Source: a bacterium (GTDB lineage Bacteria; Methylomirabilota; Methylomirabilia; CAVQYV01). From it: a DNA stretch of 34,770 nucleotides. A program made the position numbers and the translations under genes. The DNA is taken from assembly GCA_043800755.1 (NCBI GenBank), contig JAZDMQ010000082.1:1-34770 (forward strand), written 5' to 3'. A model generated the notes under the pieces. That model did not search any database and was not told where the DNA came from. It saw only the letters and a list, made by a program, of their open reading frames with translations. Below are positions 1,217 to 34,199 of the stretch, piece after piece (the first letter of the stretch is position 1; each line of letters begins with the position of its first letter).

Positions 1217-4200
1217 TCAGGCGCTTGACTTGCCGGTTCGCCTGGAGCGGCTCGTTGGTCGTTCAGGTTGGATTTCATCTTGTATGCAGATCGTCGTCGC
1301 CTCCGCGGTCGAATAGATCGCATCGATTTCCCCCTGAATGGCAATGGTCCGCTGGAGCGCTGTGACGATGCGGCAGTAAGTGCGAATGTCGTCCAGCTCC
1401 AGCCGCCGCTCCCTGCGATCCTTGAGCCACTTCTTGCAGACTTGGTATCCGCCCACTTGGTATTCCCATACTGCGGCAGGCACAGGCGCGAAATACTGGG
1501 TTTGGTTGATATAGACCCGCTGCACTTCGGCGTCATAGCGGAGGCCCTGGCTCTTGGACTTCGCCACGCGACCATCGCCCTGGCCTTCGAAGCGTGCGGC
1601 CGGTGGGTCGAGGTCGGGAGATTTCAGCAGGTGCAATGTCACCAGCCGCGCGCCCAGTGCAGCCAGCTTTTCAAAGACTTTGTGGTTAGCACTGAACGGG
1701 ATCCGCGGAAAGTCCAGGCGTAGGGATCCAGCGTATCGCTCGCGGTAAGTGGGCGCATAGAGCACCGCGTAAACATAGTGGAAGATTTCCTCCGGCGTCG
1801 GCCCTGCCTGCGCCGTGCCCGGCACGGCAGACAGGTCACGGCCATATGCCTCCGCCAGCGCCGACACTACCTTCGGATTCAGGTTCGGCCGCCGCTCGGT
1901 CGGCCCATGCCGGGAGAACAGCTCGCTACGGTCCGTGTCAGGGTAGAGGTAGAGGGGGAAAAGGTAACCACGTTCCCGTGTGCGGTTAGAGACCATGCAA
2001 TCATTTGTAATCCAGTTACTGACCATTGCATGAACCCATGGCTGCCCTGCCAGTTGTCGGCAGGTCATCAGGGCCACGTTCTCCCCCGCCAGCATGTGGC
2101 GCATGACTTTTAACAGAGGTCTGGCGTGAAAACCGTTTGACTGTCCCGTGTAGTAGGTGTGGCGGACATCGAACGGTCGGTACAGAATGGGCAGGACTCT
2201 GTCCCGATTGGGGCCTGAATCACGTATGTCTTTCTGTGCCCAGGCAACCTTCCAGGATTGTACGTCCTTGCCTAATTTGAAGGCCTCTCGGGCAAGCTCC
2301 GGGTCCATTCGGGAGAAGACCGTTACCCTCTGCCACACCTCCTCCGGCGACCCGTGGATCGTCAGGCTATCGCGAGCGGTCACGATTCCCACACTGTTGA
2401 TGGGAAAGACCTCAGTAACAGGAATGAAGCCATTGTAGGAAGCGACCAGAGCTTCGTCCTGCGGCACAAAGAGAAAGAACGGTGACTTGGGCTGCACCTC
2501 CTGCCAATCCGTGTTGGCGATGTCATGTTCTCCGAGCCAGGCGTATTTTGATTTCCGCGTGCCCCAAACTTCGGCACGGCGAACAGTGCGGCAACCCTGT
2601 GCTTCACCGCGCCTGATGAAGAAGGCGATGGCGACGCCTTGGCGGATGTCGAAGACGTTCTCGTCCTTGCTACCGTCAGGGCAGGTCTCCCGTTTGAGAG
2701 AATTGCCGTGGAGGTCCAGGACATGGATCACGTCGAAAGTCTCCATGAGGCTGTGGCGCATGCCGCGAAAGGTGGGATTGTCGAGGTACCCGTGGTTGGT
2801 GATCATCCCGATGACGCCGCAGCCGGCCTGCTCGATCTTCCACTGGGCGAAGCGCAGGAACTTGACGTAGTCGTCCTGGAGCCAGTGTTTCTTTTCGCCA
2901 AAGTGCTTTCCGTCAATGTACTTGTAATCCTCAATCAAGCCCGTAATCCATTCGCCCATGTTGGACGAGATGCCTGAGTACGGCGGATTGCCGAGGATGA
3001 CGAGGATGGGCGTCTGCTTCTTGACCTCGCCGGCGAGATGCGATTCTTCGGCAAGGGAGGAGAAACCCGGAAGGCGGCTCTGGTCCAGCTCTTTCATGTC
3101 GAGGGTGTTGGTGAGGTAAAAGCGGACCCGCTCATCGTTGGCCAGGCGGTGGCCGAGTTCCTCCAGAAAGAAACCCATCTTGAGGTGACCGACCGCATAG
3201 GGGGCCATCATCAGCTCGAACGCATAGAAGTTCTTCAGGATGTGCCGCCGGATGAAGTCCTCCCGCGCGCCGGAGCCGTACTTGGCCTCGAACTCGCGGA
3301 CGGCTTCCTGCGCGGCGCGGGCGACGAAGGTCATGGTGCCGGCGGCGGGGTCAAGGAGCGTCACGCCCTCCGAGGCCAGGCCGTCCGGCTTGCCGAACTC
3401 GGTCTTGAGGAGGTTGTGCAGGGACCGGACGATGTACGAGACGACGGGCTCCGGAGTGTAATAGACGCCGCGGCGCTCGCGCTCCTCCGGGTCATACTGG
3501 GCCAAGAAGGTCTCGTAGAAATGGACAATGGGGTCGCTGCCCTTGCCCTGCTTGTAGTAGGTGTCGAGGATTCCCGGCGCGTCCGCCACGGCCAGGACCT
3601 CGGAGATGTCGTCTACGGTCCATTCCAGTTGGGCGGGCAGATCTTCCAGGGAGATGAAGCGGAAGAGGTCGCGCAGCACGCCGATGGTGTGGGGGATGCT
3701 GTCGAAAGCGGCGCGGCGGTTGAAGCCATCGCCGGTGCGCACCCGTGCGGCAAATAGGCCGTAGGCGATGGTTTGGGCGTAGAGGTCGGCGAAGTCCTCC
3801 GGCATAAGATCACCGATGAGGTATTGCCGGAAGGCCTCGTAGAAGCCGGTGAGGGGGCCGGGGACGTCGCGCTCCTCGGCAAGCTGTTGGGCCACGATGT
3901 TACGGAGGAAGCGGGTGCGCTTGGCCAGCTCGACGGCCAGGGTCTGCGCCGTGAAAGTCTTGGGAAGGGAAAAACCGAGAAAGCGGTCGAGCAAAGCCCA
4001 GAGTTCAGCCGGTTTCTCGATGGGCGGAGCAGTCTGGAGGCGGTTCAGCGTAAACGGGCGCGCCGCCAGAACCGATTCGGTCCTCTCGCCGTTGAGATAG
4101 AGACGAAACTCCAAGAAGTTAGTCAGAATGAGGTTGGGAAACGTCGAACGGTAGCGCCGCAGTTGCTCGGAGTCCTCGATCTGATCCAGTCGCTCTTCCG

Positions 4201-4447
4201 TGGGCGGCTTGGCCTCGATGTAGCCAATGATGCGATCCGTTCCGTTCCACACGCGGAAATCGGGATTCCCGGCCTCGGTGCTCTTGGGAAGCGTGGTCAC
4301 GTGGACCTTGCTCCTGCCGGTCGCCTGCGCCACCTCTCCGAGGAGCCCGCTCAGGGTGGAGTAGAAGCTCTCTTCCCGCGCATCCCCTCTCAGGGCCACG
4401 ACCGCAATCGCTTGGAGGTAGTTTTTGAAAAGGGTCTTAGGATTCAT
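1217..4447 (-). CDS. Type IIG / type ISP-like restriction-modification enzyme (nuclease + N6-adenine MTase + TRD, no helicase)
   Basis: N-terminal NPDF...GYIEAK (PD-ExK); GVYYTP; motif I LLDPAAGT; motif IV GNPPY; LQDDYVKF; C-terminal YRPFD and GGYQV..KWL of the LlaBIII-like specificity domain. Confidence 0.9.
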   Translation of the reverse strand: MNPKTLFKNYLQAIAVVALRGDAREESFYSTLSGLLGEVAQATGRSKVHVTTLPKSTEAGNPDFRVWNGTDRIIGYIEAKPPTEERLDQIEDSEQLRRYRSTFPNLILTNFLEFRLYLNGERTESVLAARPFTLNRLQTAPPIEKPAELWALLDRFLGFSLPKTFTAQTLAVELAKRTRFLRNIVAQQLAEERDVPGPLTGFYEAFRQYLIGDLMPEDFADLYAQTIAYGLFAARVRTGDGFNRRAAFDSIPHTIGVLRDLFRFISLEDLPAQLEWTVDDISEVLAVADAPGILDTYYKQGKGSDPIVHFYETFLAQYDPEERERRGVYYTPEPVVSYIVRSLHNLLKTEFGKPDGLASEGVTLLDPAAGTMTFVARAAQEAVREFEAKYGSGAREDFIRRHILKNFYAFELMMAPYAVGHLKMGFFLEELGHRLANDERVRFYLTNTLDMKELDQSRLPGFSSLAEESHLAGEVKKQTPILVILGNPPYSGISSNMGEWITGLIEDYKYIDGKHFGEKKHWLQDDYVKFLRFAQWKIEQAGCGVIGMITNHGYLDNPTFRGMRHSLMETFDVIHVLDLHGNSLKRETCPDGSKDENVFDIRQGVAIAFFIRRGEAQGCRTVRRAEVWGTRKSKYAWLGEHDIANTDWQEVQPKSPFFLFVPQDEALVASYNGFIPVTEVFPINSVGIVTARDSLTIHGSPEEVWQRVTVFSRMDPELAREAFKLGKDVQSWKVAWAQKDIRDSGPNRDRVLPILYRPFDVRHTYYTGQSNGFHARPLLKVMRHMLAGENVALMTCRQLAGQPWVHAMVSNWITNDCMVSNRTRERGYLFPLYLYPDTDRSELFSRHGPTERRPNLNPKVVSALAEAYGRDLSAVPGTAQAGPTPEEIFHYVYAVLYAPTYRERYAGSLRLDFPRIPFSANHKVFEKLAALGARLVTLHLLKSPDLDPPAARFEGQGDGRVAKSKSQGLRYDAEVQRVYINQTQYFAPVPAAVWEYQVGGYQVCKKWLKDRRERRLELDDIRTYCRIVTALQRTIAIQGEIDAIYSTAEATTICIQDEIQPERPTSRSRRTGKSSA
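1803..1835. repeat. 33-bp palindromic element inside the R-M CDS
   Basis: CCTGCCTGC-GCCGTGCC-C-GGCACGGC-AGACAGG, an imperfect hairpin of exactly 11 codons. Confidence 0.65.
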
Positions 4448-5871: not shown

Positions 5872-6723
5872 TCAAATGCTCGAAAACCAATTTTTGTCAA
5901 CCGTGACCTTTTCAACTTCAACTTTGTCTGTCTTTACACCGAGCGATAACTCTTTGAGTTTTTGAACCAATTGGTCACCATCAACAAGGTCAATAGCGGG
6001 CGCGCCATCTCGAATCGCTTCTCTTGCGGCATCTTTGGTGAAAGTGCCCGTGGTGACAAATAATCCTTTATCTGCGCGGCCAACCATCGCGCCGCGAAAG
6101 TCGCGGATTTGGCTTGCACCAACTGCGCCTTGCCATTTTTTACACTGAAAGATAACGTGAAAACTGAGTAATCCACCAAGTCGCATGATTCCCCGCCCGT
6201 CAATTCCTCCATCTCCACTTCTACCTGTAATTTCGACTTGGATAAAGCCGGACTCGCGGAGAAACCGTTGAATCAACCGTTCAAAACCAGAAGCCTCCAT
6301 TTTGACTAAAGTGTCAAGAAGTTCCTCTTGCCATGTTGTTATTGTCTCTGCCTCTCCGAGTCCACTTTCAACTTCGAGCCGTTCTTTCTTCAATTGGTCG
6401 CGAACGACCCTTACCACTTCTCTTTCATCAATTTGACTGATAGAACGGCCATTGGGAGTGAGCGCCCATACGCCTCTGCCTGAATTCTCTAACAAGCCAT
6501 AGCGCTTCAAATATGTTCGTGTCCATGCTATCCGATACTCGAATTCCGTTTGGCCGCCTCGAGAGGAATCATGTATGACTTCCAGGTGTTCATCGGAAAG
6601 CCCCATAATCTCTGTAACCTTGCTGTTGATCTCCTCGATTGTGCCTGACCCTCCCAAGTCCTTCATTACATCGAGGACGGGATTCATGATCGCGTCATAG
6701 GTTGGAATGTTGGCTTTGTTCAT
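5872..6723 (-). CDS. mrr: Mrr-family (type IV) restriction endonuclease
   Basis: Mrr_N (PTYD.IMNPVL...EFEYRIAWTRTYLK..GLLENS.RGVW) plus Mrr_cat (FE.L...L...GF, SGDGGIDG, FQCKKW, IDLVDG). Start moved to the ATG at 6723, which has GGGAGA upstream. Confidence 0.92.
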   Translation of the reverse strand: MNKANIPTYDAIMNPVLDVMKDLGGSGTIEEINSKVTEIMGLSDEHLEVIHDSSRGGQTEFEYRIAWTRTYLKRYGLLENSGRGVWALTPNGRSISQIDEREVVRVVRDQLKKERLEVESGLGEAETITTWQEELLDTLVKMEASGFERLIQRFLRESGFIQVEITGRSGDGGIDGRGIMRLGGLLSFHVIFQCKKWQGAVGASQIRDFRGAMVGRADKGLFVTTGTFTKDAAREAIRDGAPAIDLVDGDQLVQKLKELSLGVKTDKVEVEKVTVDKNWFSSI

Positions 6724-6775
6724 TGTTCTCCCCATCAAGAGAAGCCACAATTTTTGAGATGTGCGCCAACGTCCG

Positions 6776-7324
6776 TCACGTCGGGCGGACGCAGTTGTGG
6801 TAGTCAGTGTTTGCCACAGAGTTCCGAATGCGCCACGTTCGCCAAAGTCCTTTCGGTCCACGCCGAGAGCTCCACTGCACACCTACCTGCTGAATGGCGT
6901 CGAACTCCGAAACGGAGCTTGGGATACGCTTGGGGACCTCGATGCCAACGAAGTCAAACGACTTATACTGACCGTACTCCACGATTAGAGCGAAGGTGTA
7001 CAGGCCCTCAGGACAGATGTAAGGGAACAGATGAATACTCGTTCCTACGACGGCTGCATTCGTGACATCGAGTTCCGCCCAACAAAACCGCCTCTCGTTA
7101 AATTCAAGGGTCGCTGATGTGAGCTGACGGTTCCGGAAGTCATAGTCGTCGTTGGCGGGCGACCAGAACACTCCTCGTCCACTCGAAAACTCACAAAGGC
7201 TGGGGTCGAAGATCGTCCAGTACCCCTGGCAGTCCGACGCGGTTATTCGTCCGTAGTTCAGCACGCTCGTACGGAACACCAGGCGCCTTTCCTGGACATC
7301 GGGGCGAAAGGACAGAATTTTCAC
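6776..7324 (-). CDS. Hypothetical protein (possibly frameshifted at its 5' end)
   Basis: 182-aa ORF co-oriented with the island cargo, GTG start, no recognisable motif. Confidence 0.55.
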   Translation of the reverse strand: MKILSFRPDVQERRLVFRTSVLNYGRITASDCQGYWTIFDPSLCEFSSGRGVFWSPANDDYDFRNRQLTSATLEFNERRFCWAELDVTNAAVVGTSIHLFPYICPEGLYTFALIVEYGQYKSFDFVGIEVPKRIPSSVSEFDAIQQVGVQWSSRRGPKGLWRTWRIRNSVANTDYHNCVRPT

Positions 7325-17064: not shown

Positions 17065-17523
17065 TCAGGCCTTACGATGCTCCTCCAGGGCCTCCCCCAC
17101 CCACTTTACCATCCCCTGCACGAACTTGCTGCAAAGGTTTTTGTGCAGGTTTGCTTCCTTGAACTTCTTCTGCCCCTCCGGGGTGCTCAGGTCGCACTGG
17201 GTGAGGTTGAAGCAGAGGACCGTGCCGAACTCCCGTTCGAATCTCTCGTAGAGCTCTCGGGCTAGAACATAGATCTGGTCGCGGGCGGCCGTATCCTTCG
17301 GGTCCATCCGCCCCATGGCCAGCCCCAGGGCCAGGATCCCCCCGGTCAGGGCCCCGCAGACCGATCCCTTGCGTCCGATCCCACCCCCAAAACCGGTGGC
17401 CACCTTGGGGACCACCTCTGCCCCGGGCAGCCCATAAAGCTCCTGACAGGACTTCAACACTGACTCGGCACAGTTGTAACCACTATCGTAGATCTGTTGG
17501 GTTCTCTCCTCTCGCTCGCTCAA
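17065..17523 (-). CDS. C_GCAxxG_C_C family putative redox protein
   Basis: GYNCAESV, GFGGG.G..G.VCGALTG, G...C, and a final C. Confidence 0.88.
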   Translation of the reverse strand: MSEREERTQQIYDSGYNCAESVLKSCQELYGLPGAEVVPKVATGFGGGIGRKGSVCGALTGGILALGLAMGRMDPKDTAARDQIYVLARELYERFEREFGTVLCFNLTQCDLSTPEGQKKFKEANLHKNLCSKFVQGMVKWVGEALEEHRKA

Positions 17524-22922: not shown

Positions 22923-24062
22923 ATGTCCCCTTCCATCTCTTTAATCCATCAACCAGACTACGATGACCGCGCCGTCTACCGGGCAATGCGGAGGGCGGTC
23001 GATCTCCTGGGAGGTATCGACCACTTCGTTCGCCCGGGCGAACGCATCCTGCTGAAGCCCAACCTGCTCTCCCCGGCCCCCCCGGAGAAGGCGATCACCA
23101 CCCATCCGGCGGTGGTCAGGGCGGCCATCGAGCTGGTGAGAGAGGCAGGAGGATACCCGCTCATCGGGGATAGCCCGGGCATGGCCAGCCTGGCCAAGGC
23201 AGCAGAGAGGGCGGGCATCCAGGAGGTGGCAGAGCGGGCTGGGGTGGAGCTCATTGACTTCGACCAGCCGCGGGAGGTTAAGGTGTTGCCCGATTCACGC
23301 TTTAAGAGGATCGAGGTGGCCCAGGCCGCCCTGGAGGCCGATGGCATCATCAATCTGCCGAAGCTCTAGACCCACAGCCAGATGACCCTTACCCTCAGCG
23401 TAAAGAACATGTTCGGCTGCATCCCGGGGAAGAGGAAGGCCCAGTGGCATCTTCAGGCGGGCGTGGACCGCGCCCTATTTGCCCAGATGCTGGTGGAGCT
23501 TTTTCTGGTGATGAAACCCCGCCTCAACATCCTGGATGGGATCTTAGGAATGGAGGGGGATGGGCCAGGCAATGGAGGGAGCCCCCGCTGGATCCATCTT
23601 CTGGCGGCCAGCGAGGATGGAGTGGGCTTGGACAGGGCCGTTACCGAGCTGCTTTCGATCCCCTTGCCCTCCTTTCCTGTCCTGCAGGCTGCCCAGCGAA
23701 GAGGACTCTTGCCCCAGGATTTCGGCCAGTTTCAGATCGTAGGTGAATCGTTGGAGGACCTGCGCCCCTCCGCCTTTCTGCCTCCCCGCTCCCTGGACCT
23801 GAGCTGGGGGATCCCCCCCCTCCTCCGCCGGGCCCTGCGGGGTGCCCTCACCGCCCGCCCGCGGATCGATGCGGCCCAGTGCGCCCTTTGCTATATTTGC
23901 AGCCAGGCCTGTTCCTCTCAAGCGATTCGGGAAGATAAGGGGAAATTGGTGATTGAAGAGCGAAGGTGCATCCGCTGCTTCTGCTGCCAGGAACTCTGTC
24001 CCGAGGGGGCGGTGAAGACAAGAGAGGGCTGGGCCACCGGTTGGTTGGGGATCAAGAGGTAA
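22923..24062 (+). pseudogene. DUF362 + 4Fe-4S dicluster protein interrupted by an in-frame TAG (nonsense mutation or amber readthrough)
   Basis: ORFs 22923-23369 and 23382-24062 are in one frame and read INLPKL*THSQMTLTLSVKNMFG, where the family motif is PKLKTH. Also LLKPNLL and two CxxCxxCxxxC(P) motifs. Confidence 0.85.
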
Positions 24063-30412: not shown

Positions 30413-32851
30413 ATGCACCCAGAGGTTCCGGCAGAAAGGCTCCGGAGGATCTGCGATCCGTCCTCTCTCGGATTCCGCACCACAGAAGGACTAAAGCCGG
30501 TGGAAGGCATCATCGGTCAGGCCCGTGCGATCAGGGCCCTGCAATTTGGACTGGCCATTCAGGAGCATGGTTTCAATATCTATGTGGCCGGCCTGCCAGG
30601 CACCGGAAGGACGACTGCGGTGAAGGCCTTTTTGGAGGAACTCGCTCGCCAAAAGGAGGTCCCCACCGATTGGTGTTATGTCCATCATTTCAAGGACCCC
30701 TATTTTCCCAAGGCCATGAAATTGCCTCCTGGCAAGGGGAAGGTCCTGCAGGAGGATATGCGCAAACTGGTGGAGGAGGCCCGCCGCGAGATCCCGAGAG
30801 TCTTCGAGAAGGAAGACTATACGATGAGGAGGGAGCGAATCGGGGACGGGCTGCGCAAAAAGAGAGAGGCGCTGTTCACCCGCCTGGGGGAGAGGGCACA
30901 GGAGAAGGGGTTTCAGATCCAGTCCTCCCAGGTTGGTCTGCTGATCATCCCGGTGGTGGATGGGAATCCCATGAGCGATCAGGACTTCATGGCCTTGCCC
31001 CCGGAGAGGAAAGAGGAGATCCTCAAAAGACGCAGCGTGGTGGAAGAGGAGCTCAAGACCGCCACGAAGGAGCTCAAGGCCGCGGAGAAGGAGACCAATG
31101 AGGAACTGCAGAATTTGGATCGAGAGGTAGCCCTCTTCGCGGTGGGGTATCTCCTGAACGATCTGAAAGAGAGATATGAAGATCTCCCCCAGGTTCTGAA
31201 TTACCTGAAAGAGGTCCAAGAGGACATCCTGGAGAACATCGGCCAATTTCGAGGGGGGGGCGAGGGGTCCAGCGAGATGCTTCTCCCCATGGCCAGATTG
31301 AGGGAGCTTGCCTTCCGGAAATATCAGGTGAATGTGGTGGTGGATAATTCGGGGATGACCGGGGCCCCGGTGGTCATGGAGTTCAATCCTACCAACAATA
31401 ATCTCTTCGGCCGTATCGAAAAGGAATCAGAGTTTGGAGCCCTGGTAACGGATTTCACCATGATTCGCGCCGGATCCCTCCACCGGGCCAATGGGGGTTA
31501 TCTGGTGGTGCAAGTGGAGGAGTTGTTGCGCAATATCTTCTCCTGGGATGGGTTGAAGAGATCCATCCGCAATCGGGAGATCGCCATTGAGGAGGCGGGC
31601 GAAAGGCTCGGTTTCATTGCCACCAAGAGCCTGAGCCCGGAACCCATCCCCCTGGAGACCAAGGTCATCCTCATAGGCAACCCGGCTTTATATCACTTCC
31701 TCTTCGCCTATGACGAGGATTTCAACGAGCTGTTCAAGGTAAAGGCCGACTTTGATACCCGCATGGATTGGACAGAGGAGAATATTAAGACCTATGCGGC
31801 CTCTCTCTGGTCCCTCTGCTGCAGGGAACGCCTGAGGCATATGGATGCAGGGGCGGTGGCCAAGGTCATTGAGCACAGCTCGCGGCTGGCCGAGGACCAG
31901 GAGAAGCTCTCAACGCGTTTCATTGAGATTTCCGATATCATGCGGGAGGCCAATCATTATGCCTCGTCAGCGGGATCATCGCTGGTTACGCGGGGCGAGG
32001 TGGAAAAGGCGATCGAGGAGAGGATCTATCGCTCCAACCTGATCCAGGAGAGGATCAACGATCTGATTGCCAAGGGGGTCCTCTGCATCGATACCGAAGG
32101 GGAGGTGGTGGGGCAGGTGAACGGCCTGGCAGTCATCAGCCTGGGAGATTTCGCCTTCGGCCGGCCCAATCGCATCACCGTAAGCGTTGGCCTGGGGCGA
32201 GAGGGGATCATCGATATCGAAAGGGAGTCCAAACTGGGCGGCCGCATTCACACCAAAGGGGTCATGATCCTCGGAGGCTTCCTCGCAGATCGCTATGCCC
32301 AGGATAAACCCCTGGCCCTCTCGGCTCGGCTGGTCTTCGAGCAGAGCTATGAGGAGGTGGAGGGGGATTCTGCCTCCAGCACCGAGCTCTATGCCCTGCT
32401 CTCTGCCCTCTCGGGCCTCCCCATCCGCCAAGGAATCGCGGTGACCGGATCGGTCAACCAAAAGGGTCAGGTGCAGGCGATTGGGGGGGTCAACCAGAAG
32501 GTTGAGGGATTCTTTCAGATCTGTCAGGCCAAGGGCCTCACTGGAGCCCAGGGGGTAATCATTCCCGAATCCAACCTCTCCAACCTGATGTTGAAGGAGG
32601 AGGTAGTGCAGGCGGCGCGGGAAGGGAAATTCCATATCTGGCCGGTCAAGACCATCGACGAGGGGATTGAGATCCTGACTGGGCAGCAGGCAGGACAGAA
32701 GAGGGCGGACCTGACCTTCGAACCGGATACGGTGAACGATCGAGTCAATAGAAGGCTCCAGGAATTGGCCCGACAGCTGCGGGATTTCATGAAAGAAGAG
32801 GGGAGGGAAAAAGGAGAGACCGCGGATTCAAGCCAAGGGAAGAGCGGATGA
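30413..32851 (+). CDS. Lon-like (LonC-type) S16 protease
   Basis: IIGQ.RA, atypical Walker A GLPGTGRT, GSLHRANGG, GQVNGL, FEQSY..VEGDSAS (Ser), IGGVNQK (Lys). ATG at 30413 follows AGGAGG. Confidence 0.92.
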   Translation: MHPEVPAERLRRICDPSSLGFRTTEGLKPVEGIIGQARAIRALQFGLAIQEHGFNIYVAGLPGTGRTTAVKAFLEELARQKEVPTDWCYVHHFKDPYFPKAMKLPPGKGKVLQEDMRKLVEEARREIPRVFEKEDYTMRRERIGDGLRKKREALFTRLGERAQEKGFQIQSSQVGLLIIPVVDGNPMSDQDFMALPPERKEEILKRRSVVEEELKTATKELKAAEKETNEELQNLDREVALFAVGYLLNDLKERYEDLPQVLNYLKEVQEDILENIGQFRGGGEGSSEMLLPMARLRELAFRKYQVNVVVDNSGMTGAPVVMEFNPTNNNLFGRIEKESEFGALVTDFTMIRAGSLHRANGGYLVVQVEELLRNIFSWDGLKRSIRNREIAIEEAGERLGFIATKSLSPEPIPLETKVILIGNPALYHFLFAYDEDFNELFKVKADFDTRMDWTEENIKTYAASLWSLCCRERLRHMDAGAVAKVIEHSSRLAEDQEKLSTRFIEISDIMREANHYASSAGSSLVTRGEVEKAIEERIYRSNLIQERINDLIAKGVLCIDTEGEVVGQVNGLAVISLGDFAFGRPNRITVSVGLGREGIIDIERESKLGGRIHTKGVMILGGFLADRYAQDKPLALSARLVFEQSYEEVEGDSASSTELYALLSALSGLPIRQGIAVTGSVNQKGQVQAIGGVNQKVEGFFQICQAKGLTGAQGVIIPESNLSNLMLKEEVVQAAREGKFHIWPVKTIDEGIEILTGQQAGQKRADLTFEPDTVNDRVNRRLQELARQLRDFMKEEGREKGETADSSQGKSG

Positions 32852-32918
32852 TGTGCATCATCGGTGAGATCAGGGGGATCCCCTGACGGAGGATCCGGAT
32901 CTAAAGGGGTGAAGAGGG

Positions 32919-34199
32919 ATGATTTCCGGGGTGGAGAGAAAGGACGTGGTCAAAGCGTTGTGTGTCTTCCTTTTTCTGTTGATGGTCTCTTGCCTTTGGC
33001 CCCCGCAAGTTGGCCTGACCGCAAAGGATAGCTGCGAGACCTGCCATACCGACAAGTCCCTCCTTAAGATCTTTCTCTCCCCCCTTCCTGCGCCGAGTCC
33101 GGCGGAAGAGGAGGAGAGCTGAGCGGGGACTCTTCCCCCGGTGGGGGATCGGACGGAGCTCTACTGGGTGGACCCCGCCTTTGTGGCCTCCAGGCATGGC
33201 GCCTTGGGCTGTCCCGCTTGCCATGGGGGAGAACCGGCTGCCCCTGAAAAGGCTCAAGCCCACCGGGACCTGATTAGGGATCCCTCCGCCAATGCCAACC
33301 AGGTCTGCGCCCCTTGTCACGCTCAGATTGCCGAGAGATACCAAACCTCCATTCATGCCACGGTCAAGGGATACGAGACCGTGCTCAAGATCCGGGCGGG
33401 CTCTCGCTGGAACGATCTGGAGCCGATCTACCAGTCAAATTGCGTCGGATGCCACGCGACCTGCGGCCACTGCCACATCAGCCGGCATCCCTCAGGAGGC
33501 GGCGGGCTGCTCGCCGGACATCAATTCTTCAAGAGGCCACCTCCTGATAAGACTTGCGGGAGTTGCCATGGAGGGCGCGTCTCGCCGGAGTTCTATGGGA
33601 GGCACGAGGGACAACCTCCGGATGTCCATTTTGCGAAGGCAAAAATGGACTGCTTCGACTGCCACAACCCTCAGGAATTTCACGGGACCGAGACCCCTTA
33701 TCAGGATCGATATCCCTTGATCTCCAAGGTCTCCTGCCTCAGCTGCCACCAGGACCAATTCCAGGGTCCCTCGGCGATCGGAGCCCACAATGTCCACGGA
33801 AGGGATTTCCAGTGTCAAGTCTGCCACGCCGTCCTTTACAAAGGTTGCTACGAATGCCACATCGGAAAGGGATCCAGGTCCCAGCTGCAGTTCAAAATAG
33901 GAAAAAGCCTCAGGCCGGACAGGCCTTACCGCTATACCCTATTGCGGCATAACCCGATCGTCCGCGATACCTTTGCGGCGAGGCTAAAAGACGCGCTTCC
34001 CGATTACGATCTGATCCCAAACTGGAAGGACACCTCCCCCCATAATATTCAGAGGGTGACCTATCGGAGCCGGACCTGCAATGGCTGCCACGGCAATTCC
34101 CGCATTTTCCTGCGAAGTGAGGATCTGAAGCCTGGGGATCCCCGGGCTAACGAGCAGGTGATCGTGCCCAATATACCGCTCAAGATAGAAGCGAAGTAA
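32919..34199 (+). CDS. Periplasmic multiheme (11 CxxCH) cytochrome c with probable selenocysteine (UGA at 33120-33122)
   Basis: ORFs 32919-33122 (signal peptide + CETCH) and 33141-34199 (10 CxxCH, no signal peptide) are in frame across one TGA: PAEEEES-U-AGTLPP. A SECIS-like hairpin follows. The start could alternatively be the GTG at 32946. Confidence 0.8.
33120..33148 (+). promoter_or_regulatory. Putative bacterial SECIS element
   Basis: TGA-GCGGGGACTCT-TCCCCC-GGT-GGGGGA: a 6-bp GC-rich stem with a GGU apical loop 17 nt after the UGA. Confidence 0.7.

Follow-up and report, generated by a model that had tools for sequence, protein, structure and literature searches.

A conserved in-frame TGA and a covarying hairpin point to a widespread family of selenocysteine-containing undecahaem cytochromes c

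Introduction

Selenocysteine (Sec)-containing multihaem cytochromes were established experimentally as an enzyme class only in 2026, through MccSep. This protein of Geobacter sulfurreducens (ExtKL, GSU2937-2936) is described as a Sec multihaem polysulfide reductase, a five-haem homotetramer in which Cys239 ligates haem 2 and Sec325 lies on a D-G-U-P loop of a C-terminal immunoglobulin (Ig)-like domain, and which reduces both polysulfide and selenite (PMC13510729). PMC1914089 describes the Geobacter five-haem candidate alone. Among the 119 prokaryotic selenoprotein families inventoried in PMC13188914, the relevant entries of Table 1 are only ExtKL, the GSU2204 family, and the family of octahaem tetrathionate reductase (OTR), whose Sec-containing form is marked "GenBank annotated" there. 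Here, we analyzed a 34,770-nucleotide (nt) stretch of DNA from a bacterium of the Methylomirabilota (contig JAZDMQ010000082.1 of assembly GCA_043800755.1; hereafter the window), near the end of which an exported c-type cytochrome with one CxxCH haem motif before an in-frame TGA and ten after it is encoded by what a standard gene caller sees as two open reading frames (ORFs). The explanation that we consider very likely is a single gene for an undecahaem cytochrome with Sec at position 68 (Sec68) and a probable sulfur chemistry. Judged by its sequences, the protein represents a new and widespread family of selenoproteins that joins the emerging class of Sec multihaem cytochromes.

Results

The TGA is the only interruption of a 426-codon frame and is conserved among homologues

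On the forward strand, the frame 32919-34199 runs from an ATG to a TAA (34197-34199) and is interrupted solely by TGA 33120-33122. The upstream ORF comprises 67 codons from ATG 32919 (MISGVERKDVVKALCVFLFLLMVSC..CETCH..PAEEEES), in which haem motif C39ETCH43 is followed by a Pro/Glu-rich stretch that runs up to the TGA. When read through, the protein contains 11 CxxCH motifs (CETCH, CPACH, CAPCH, CVGCH, CGHCH, CGSCH, CFDCH, CLSCH, CQVCH, CYECH, and CNGCH), and the predicted peptide across the junction is IFLSPLPAPSPAEEEES-U-AGTLPPVGDR. The downstream ORF lacks a signal peptide, and GTG or TTG starts for it fall inside a hairpin; its single start under translation table 11, GTG 33141, sits across the loop and the 3' arm of this hairpin. 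On both counts, this ORF cannot function as a gene by itself. These observations agree with the initial annotation of the locus, made from the letters alone, which had described the 67-residue ORF ending at a TGA, the open frame with ten further CxxCH motifs beyond it, and a downstream ORF without signal peptide whose GTG start is buried in the hairpin. DNA contigs of two sequencing runs that span 32850-33586 carry the TGA unchanged, and one of these runs may be the source of the window itself.

All seven genome loci have TGA at the aligned column and in the same frame, haem 1 being encoded before it and the remaining haems after it. These loci are the window, two from the same class (G001, 75% identity; G016, 42% identity), and four from Syntrophomonadaceae, Bacillota, Dehalococcoidia, and Chloroflexi metagenome-assembled genomes (MAGs; L020, L021, L023, and L024); the L022 protein equals the L016 protein and was counted once. 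Among the best 80 of at least 584 metagenome relatives, all 78 loci that cover the column also have TGA, the other two (L101 and L114) starting further downstream. When 201 genomes of the class were searched with a profile, 12 of them, from 5 of 60 genera, proved to be carriers, each with a single in-frame TGA; in G044 the gene is in two pieces. The class tallies used here, including the 178 genomes with selA mentioned below, contain two genomes flagged as unpublished (G133 and G092), on which nothing else here depends. No homologue examined in the genome, metagenome, or class-carrier sets has TAA or TAG at the column. The genuine 3' ends of these metagenome genes, which served as a control, use TAG 26, TGA 24, and TAA 19 times (69 gene ends inside contigs; 7 more lie at contig ends). 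The arrangement of haem 1 upstream and haems 2-11 downstream of the TGA is kept in 83 of 83 Sec-type sequences, and because the haem 1 motif is invariant in all of them, the upstream ORF is part of the cytochrome. The initial annotation had named homologues with the two ORFs out of frame, or ended by TAA or TAG, as evidence that would speak against it; in the homologues found, the frame is common and the stop is always TGA.

More distant relatives were sought with a profile of the seven sequences against 1.84 billion cluster representatives, which returned 1855 representatives at E ≤ 1e-3 and 208 at E ≤ 1e-30. Many of the matches begin at about position 72, being ORFs called just after the TGA. 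Cys occupies the Sec column in 15 full-length representatives (for example, GEGCGG in P0051 and GGGCGG in P0057), some of them with a CxxC arrangement, and these Cys forms are single full-length proteins. Sequence is conserved on both sides of the column. Other residues found there are His (P0027, GEGHSD), Met (P0014 and P0112), Tyr (P0061), and Trp (P0011, P0015, and P0041); the last may be TGA read as Trp by the gene caller. A vicinal Cys-Sec pair occurs in one metagenome member (L173, SGEC-U-AG; loop GECUAG), and a vicinal Cys-Cys pair, GECCGG, in two Cys-type representatives (P0048 and P0050).

A hairpin downstream of the TGA shows compensatory changes

The initial annotation had placed a hairpin, TCCCCC-GGT-GGGGGA, behind the TGA as a possible selenocysteine insertion sequence (SECIS). 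Its coordinates are correct: the arms occupy 33134-33139 and 33143-33148, and the loop begins 17 nt after the A of the TGA. The roughly 11-nt distance from the TGA to the stem agrees with the spacing of the minimal element of Escherichia coli fdhF. We aligned 83 sequences (80 distinct), which are gapless over 48 nt from the TGA. The hairpin starts 8-12 nt past the TGA in 65 of the 80 distinct sequences, with a stem of 5-9 base pairs and an apical loop at columns 21-23 that reads GUU in 38 and GGU in 13.

Changes on both sides were seen for 8 of the 9 helix pairs, and pairing is kept across the 83 sequences. Pair 16-28 is CG in 62 and GC in 14 sequences, pair 18-26 is UA in 50 and CG in 25, and pair 15-29 is GC in 41, UA in 10, and AU in 6. 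Pairing cells make up 78.8% of the helix, compared with 68.9% in shuffled alignments. The covariation score is 0.343 versus 0.156 in shuffles, a value reached by none of 500, and sliding the 3' arm by 1-3 columns lowers it to 0.05-0.14. The peptide encoded by the stem alternates between A-P-L-E-P and P-P-L-E-A in step with the pair changes, a switch that only RNA pairing can explain sensibly.

The genome carries the Sec machinery

The genome to which the window belongs (G000, 100% complete; the window is its contig C45) contains all four components of the Sec pathway: selA (470 bits), selB (371 bits, above the cut-off), a tRNA-Sec gene at C60:330-427, and selD (394 bits), which is of the Sec type with its own in-frame TGA in GAG-U-ACK. 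selA was found in five of five other carrier genomes tested.

Taken together, the conservation of the TGA, the covarying hairpin, the Sec machinery, and the Cys forms support the view of the initial annotation that the two ORFs are one 426-residue selenoprotein. As judged by comparative sequence analysis, TGA 33120-33122 almost certainly encodes Sec. The features of the gene are listed in Table 1.

Table 1. Features of the predicted undecahaem selenoprotein gene in the window
Feature	Position	Strand	Description
Whole predicted selenoprotein gene	32919..34199	+	426 codons plus TAA; undecahaem c-type cytochrome with predicted Sec68
Predicted N-terminal export signal	32919..33032	+	Basic n-region, hydrophobic core, lipobox-like M-V-S-C25 (Cys25 codon 32991-32993)
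Haem 1 motif C39-E-T-C-H43	33033..33047	+	5' of the TGA; invariant in 83/83 Sec-type sequences
In-frame TGA, predicted Sec68	33120..33122	+	..EEEES-U-AG..; family consensus G-E-G-U-[G/A/S]-G
SECIS-like hairpin core	33134..33148	+	Stem UCCCCC/GGGGGA, loop GGU 33140-33142, about 11 nt after the TGA
Rest of coding region	33123..34196	+	Haems 2-11, 10 conserved non-motif His, C-terminal beta-rich part

The export signal was identified by eye from the translation. Cys25, which stands in a context like the lipobox consensus, aligns with a Cys of the homologues in L-V-A-C, A-I-G-C, and L-T-A-C contexts. In the G001 locus (L015), the sole ATG, GTG, or TTG start before haem 1 is a GTG that gives a very short signal peptide; the open frame extends further upstream (..RFPRPWLWPLSS-VAFACF..), and this gene may use an unusual start codon.

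The family has one conserved His fewer than bis-His ligation of all haems would need

The protein is a c-type multihaem cytochrome by its matches to PF14522 (40.9 bits) and PF14537 (27.1 bits), both above their cut-offs; Pfam and NCBIfam scans gave generic multihaem matches and no specific family. In the 83 Sec-type members, the 11 motif His and 10 non-motif His (H93, H115, H146, H201, H237, H255, H290, H293, H344, and H375) are conserved, Met243 is present in 72, and no free Cys is conserved besides the Sec column. With 10 conserved non-motif His for 11 CxxCH motifs, ten haems are probably ligated by two histidines (bis-His).

AlphaFold2, run on a 97-sequence alignment, gave a model with a mean predicted local distance difference test (pLDDT) of 91.4 and a predicted template modeling score (pTM) of 0.85. 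For residues 61-70 the mean pLDDT is 72, and residues 61-65 form a short helix in the model. The initial annotation had placed Sec68 on a flexible acidic linker; the acidic sequence is there, but the segment does not look simply flexible in the model.

The family is a remote homologue of OTR

In a VIA comparison, the best solved match to the model (residues 90-426) was Shewanella OTR (1sp3_A; Z 9.7, root mean square deviation 4.2 Å over 256 residues), and the runner-up had Z 4.9. An hhalign comparison with an alignment of four OTR-family proteins, all of which score beyond the 375-bit cut-off of TIGR04315, gave 98.5% probability and E 2e-15 over residues 115-308 (193 columns), with seven haem motifs paired. 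In this comparison, the haem bound at C175xxCH corresponds to the active haem of OTR. Foldseek found nothing in the PDB at E ≤ 1e-3, OTR appearing at E 5e-3, and a single-protein sequence search of the PDB returned cytochrome c7 alone (E 0.045). The undecahaem family is a remote homologue of OTR. It is not a member of TIGR04315, for which the window protein scored 17.2 bits against the cut-off of 375 (E 0.0021, residues 232-304 only).

In both families, one more conserved His would be needed for every haem to be bis-His. In OTR, 8 motif His, 7 non-motif His, and an invariant K53 serve 8 haems, whereas the undecahaem family has 11 haems, two of the extra ones N-terminal and one in the C-terminal half. 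The OTR loop GK..NN[YF]C before haem 2 contains K53 and C61, invariant in the four OTR-family proteins, which we take to correspond to Lys56, a haem ligand, and Cys64 of the active site in the OTR of Mowat et al. (2004). We rejected the idea that the undecahaem family has an OTR active-site loop, as its aligned residues 147-174 lack an invariant Lys or Cys/Sec. Its Sec instead stands on an N-terminal G-E-G-U-G-G loop, another segment with another SECIS.

One MAG (G206) carries both a true OTR (L182) and an undecahaem gene (L024). OTR-family genes with an in-frame TGA were found in 5 of 121 genomes searched. Three OTR-family genes with extra haems (L186, L187, and L188 of G297, G253, and G247, respectively; 13 CxxCH) have TGA in place of the invariant Cys of GK..ALNNY-C.

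The family resembles MccSep and other chalcogen enzymes without belonging to them

MccSep and the undecahaem family are both exported c-type multihaem cytochromes with one Sec, encoded by a UGA that is followed by a SECIS-like hairpin, and in both the Sec is on a small Gly-containing loop. MccSep, too, was long annotated as two ORFs, and Cys-type homologues of it exist; it is presumably linked to a rhodanese-like gene (the extH cluster). The differences are that MccSep has 5 haems, Sec325 near the C-terminus, and a strictly conserved haem-ligating Cys239, whereas the undecahaem family has 11 haems, Sec68 in an N-terminal insert, and no conserved free Cys. Kinship with MccSep was rejected, as the family profile matched chains 9wt8/9wt9 at E 0.06 only (15 bits, 26 residues). 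ExtKL, which the initial annotation had invoked, is indeed a known Sec multihaem cytochrome, but the protein described here falls outside that family, as the ExtKL model NF040886 gave no match at E ≤ 1. The undecahaem family probably works in a manner similar to MccSep though it is not a member.

Thioredoxin reductase has a C-terminal Gly-Cys-Sec-Gly arm that presents Sec beside Gly on a mobile segment, and it exists in Sec and Cys types. The Gly-flanked Sec of the undecahaem family, with its Cys-Sec (L173) and Cys-Cys (P0048 and P0050) variants, recalls this redox tail; the two are unrelated, however, thioredoxin reductase being flavin-dependent and most undecahaem members having no neighboring Cys. 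TsdA and SoxAX use a chalcogen side chain at a special haem to act on S-S bonds, as proposed below for Sec68, and their tetrathionate/thiosulfate chemistry is common to OTR; they are dihaem proteins with Cys and no Sec, and have no detectable relation to the undecahaem family. PMC13510729 cites the His/Cys-ligated catalytic haems of TsdA and SoxAX and likens MccSep conceptually to the thioredoxin reductase arm.

Genes for sulfur handling adjoin many members of the family

In 26 of 47 and 10 of 16, together 36 of 63, metagenome loci, a rhodanese gene is found no further than two ORFs from the cytochrome; the count omits L164, which is identical to L163, and covers loci with at least 900 nt on at least one side. 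A rhodanese gene also adjoins four of the six other genome loci (L016, L021, L023, and L024), that of G016 having its own signal peptide, and in P0061 and P0047 the cytochrome is fused to two rhodanese domains. Genes for TusA and a YeeE-like (Sulf_transp) transporter are near L020 and L021, a DsrE-like gene is near L138, and CsoR/CstR-like repressors are near L125 and L128. PF03601 genes occur among the neighbors. NrfC-like Fer4_11 proteins are encoded directly downstream in about ten loci, with NrfD at L140 and a cytochrome b at L126. Further multihaem cytochrome genes are found near L133, L140, L148, L168, L171, L175, and L178, and the divergent relative P0138 is fused to a cell-wall-binding domain.

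This gene context suggests an enzyme outside the cytoplasm that reduces or oxidizes sulfur compounds and is supplied from the quinone pool. We lean, by a little, toward a sulfur or chalcogen redox role.

Five rhodanese-domain genes occur elsewhere in the genome of the window, none beside the cytochrome. One of the five, a rhodanese-domain match at G000:C19:3032-3319 on the minus strand, has one in-frame TGA and is probably a Sec-type rhodanese.

Occurrence and annotation of the family

In the metagenome scan, 598 stretches yielded at least 584 relatives. By their record titles, members come from the Bacillota, the Chloroflexota/Dehalococcoidia, the Rokuibacteriota, and the class of the window. 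In 41 of 43 close database relatives, the recorded form is the downstream piece only, which bears out the suspicion of the initial annotation that the family is routinely mis-annotated as split genes. The names given are "hypothetical protein" and "cytochrome c3 family protein", and 9 of the 43 rows carry the JGI name "thiosulfate/3-mercaptopyruvate sulfurtransferase"; none of the source names of relatives labels a selenoprotein. No description of the undecahaem family was found in the literature searched, although subscription papers and supplements, including the homologue lists of PMC13510729, could hold one.

Because gene callers cut the gene at the TGA, its signal peptide, one haem, and the Sec are lost to surveys that deal with haem-protein content, extracellular electron transfer, or sulfur cycling. 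The family would represent a second Sec cytochrome architecture beside, and unrelated to, that of MccSep.

Discussion

Proposed mechanism

In the mechanism that we propose, the hairpin 11 nt downstream would direct SelB and tRNA-Sec to decode UGA 33120 as Sec. The product would be an exported, probably lipid-anchored protein of 426 residues with 11 covalent haems and Sec68. Ten haems would be bis-His and serve electron transfer; the eleventh would be special and catalytic, as it is in OTR. The Gly-flanked loop inserted between haems 1 and 2 would bring Sec68 to work at this eleventh haem, and we assign both roles because the His count leaves one haem that is not bis-His. There, Sec68 could act as a chalcogen nucleophile that attacks S-S or S-Se bonds, and possibly also as a sixth haem ligand. 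Polysulfide, tetrathionate/thiosulfate, or a rhodanese-bound persulfide would be likely substrates, with electrons entering the haem chain from a membrane quinol-oxidizing module. Parallels are found in MccSep, which pairs a Cys-ligated haem with Sec, and in the Sec-type OTR, which has Sec for the active-site Cys. Together with these two, the undecahaem family suggests a general design in which Cys or Sec is placed at a non-bis-His haem for S-S chemistry.

Several observations weigh against this interpretation. The selenium in the protein is deduced from the sequences, not from direct evidence. When folded alone, the 75 nt from 33111 to 33185 are not special (z -0.94; 29 of 200 shuffles equal it), and an Rfam scan at E ≤ 10 returned chance microRNA-like matches only and no SECIS family. 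As its stability is no better than that of shuffles, the single-sequence fold proves nothing, and it is the comparison with relatives that carries weight. Two of the 12 class carriers have no selA match, their MAGs being 70% and 76% complete, and the co-occurrence with selA says little because 178 of 201 class genomes have the gene. Five divergent relatives lack the Sec loop, the gap between haem motifs 1 and 2 being 33-35 residues in them as against a median of 54, so the loop is dispensable for the fold. The AlphaFold2 model contains no haems. By our own estimate, the protein has about 4 kDa of peptide per haem, which is within the range of pure electron carriers. Finally, in the window and in its closest relative, G001, the cytochrome adjoins genes for a LonB-like protease and a universal stress protein; since neither locus has a rhodanese gene beside the cytochrome, the functional interpretation is borrowed from other lineages.

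Alternative explanations

It could be argued that the TGA is a real stop, whether through a nonsense mutation, a sequencing error, or the separation of a 67-residue monohaem lipoprotein from a 352-residue decahaem protein. Translation under table 11 does yield two ORFs, the downstream ORF is what databases show as the protein for 41 of 43 close relatives, and the RNA-library contigs flank the TGA without bridging it. These contigs come from two metatranscriptome runs of one study (at least 99% identity), none of them crosses 33111-33122, and because DNA carry-over is possible, we counted them neither for nor against the Sec reading. An in-frame TGA in the same column of 7, 78, and 9 further sequences, while true gene ends use all three stops, is hard to reconcile with such a stop, as are the lack of an export signal in the downstream ORF, the covarying hairpin, the full-length Cys forms, and the identical TGA in DNA contigs of two runs. 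We regard a real stop as scarcely credible. A different kind of question is whether Sec68 does not merely attack the substrate at the special haem but is the sixth (distal) ligand of the haem that lacks a conserved His (His/selenolate), leaving the iron to meet the substrate. Such a haem would be a selenium version of the His/Cys haems found in TsdA, SoxAX, and MccSep (its haem 2). The count of 11 CxxCH against 10 conserved non-motif His fits this idea, and Cys, His, Met, and Tyr, which replace Sec at its column in relatives that keep the loop, are all known haem-iron ligands; there is no other conserved free Cys, and a pLDDT of 72 for residues 61-70 does not describe a disordered linker. On the other hand, Met243 (72 of 83 members) could supply the missing ligand, five relatives have no loop, and the Cys-Sec of L173 and the Cys-Cys of P0048 and P0050 look more like a redox-active pair. 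Selenolate ligation is, in our judgment, possible but unlikely. To our knowledge, a selenolate ligand to haem iron occurs only in engineered P450s. The undecahaem family is a concrete candidate for a natural Se-Fe haem; that its members use selenolate as an axial ligand, as the first haem proteins in nature to do so, and that this ligand leaves and attacks the substrate in a widespread, so far unannotated respiratory enzyme of sediment and groundwater bacteria, is a speculation that we consider somewhat doubtful.

Two further explanations accept the Sec and change what the protein does, and we think each of them improbable. The cytochrome might be an electron-transfer wire from a membrane quinol dehydrogenase to a terminal enzyme or an extracellular acceptor, with Sec used for sensing, protection, or docking. 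The estimate of about 4 kDa per haem would suit a wire, as PMC7096707 assigns a low peptide-per-haem range to pure electron carriers, not enzymes, and so would the multihaem cytochrome genes near the seven loci listed above and the cell-wall-binding domain of P0138. A wire accounts less well for a costly Sec that is kept in every close relative, with Cys forms elsewhere, a pattern typical of catalytic residues; it also sits uneasily with the homology to OTR, an enzyme that is likewise one His short, and with the rhodanese linkage, which points to substrate handling. The protein might also be an enzyme for a substrate other than sulfur, such as nitrite, hydroxylamine, or selenite/tellurite. OTR-family and related enzymes are promiscuous, OTR also reducing nitrite and hydroxylamine and MccSep also reducing selenite (PMC13510729), and the best NCBIfam match, a weak one (32.7 bits against a cut-off of 800), is to ExtM of a selenite/tellurite operon. 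The neighborhoods speak for sulfur instead, dominated as they are by rhodanese, TusA, YeeE-like, DsrE-like, and CstR-like genes, with no nitrogen-cycle gene among the neighbors seen at the examined loci.

Other features of the window

A DUF362 (PF04015) gene at 22923-24059 on the plus strand contains an in-frame TAG at 23367-23369 (..NLPKL*THSQM..). Its halves match adjoining parts of the PF04015 profile (1-108 and 114-199), and the TAG may have arisen by nonsense mutation or from an error in assembly, among other possibilities. A C_GCAxxG_C_C family protein (PF09719), of which Sec forms occur in other organisms, is encoded at 17068-17523 on the minus strand in a frame without internal stop. 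The minus strand also encodes a Type ISP restriction-modification enzyme (Type_ISP_C, N6_Mtase) at 1220-4447 and an Mrr-type restriction endonuclease at 5875-6882.

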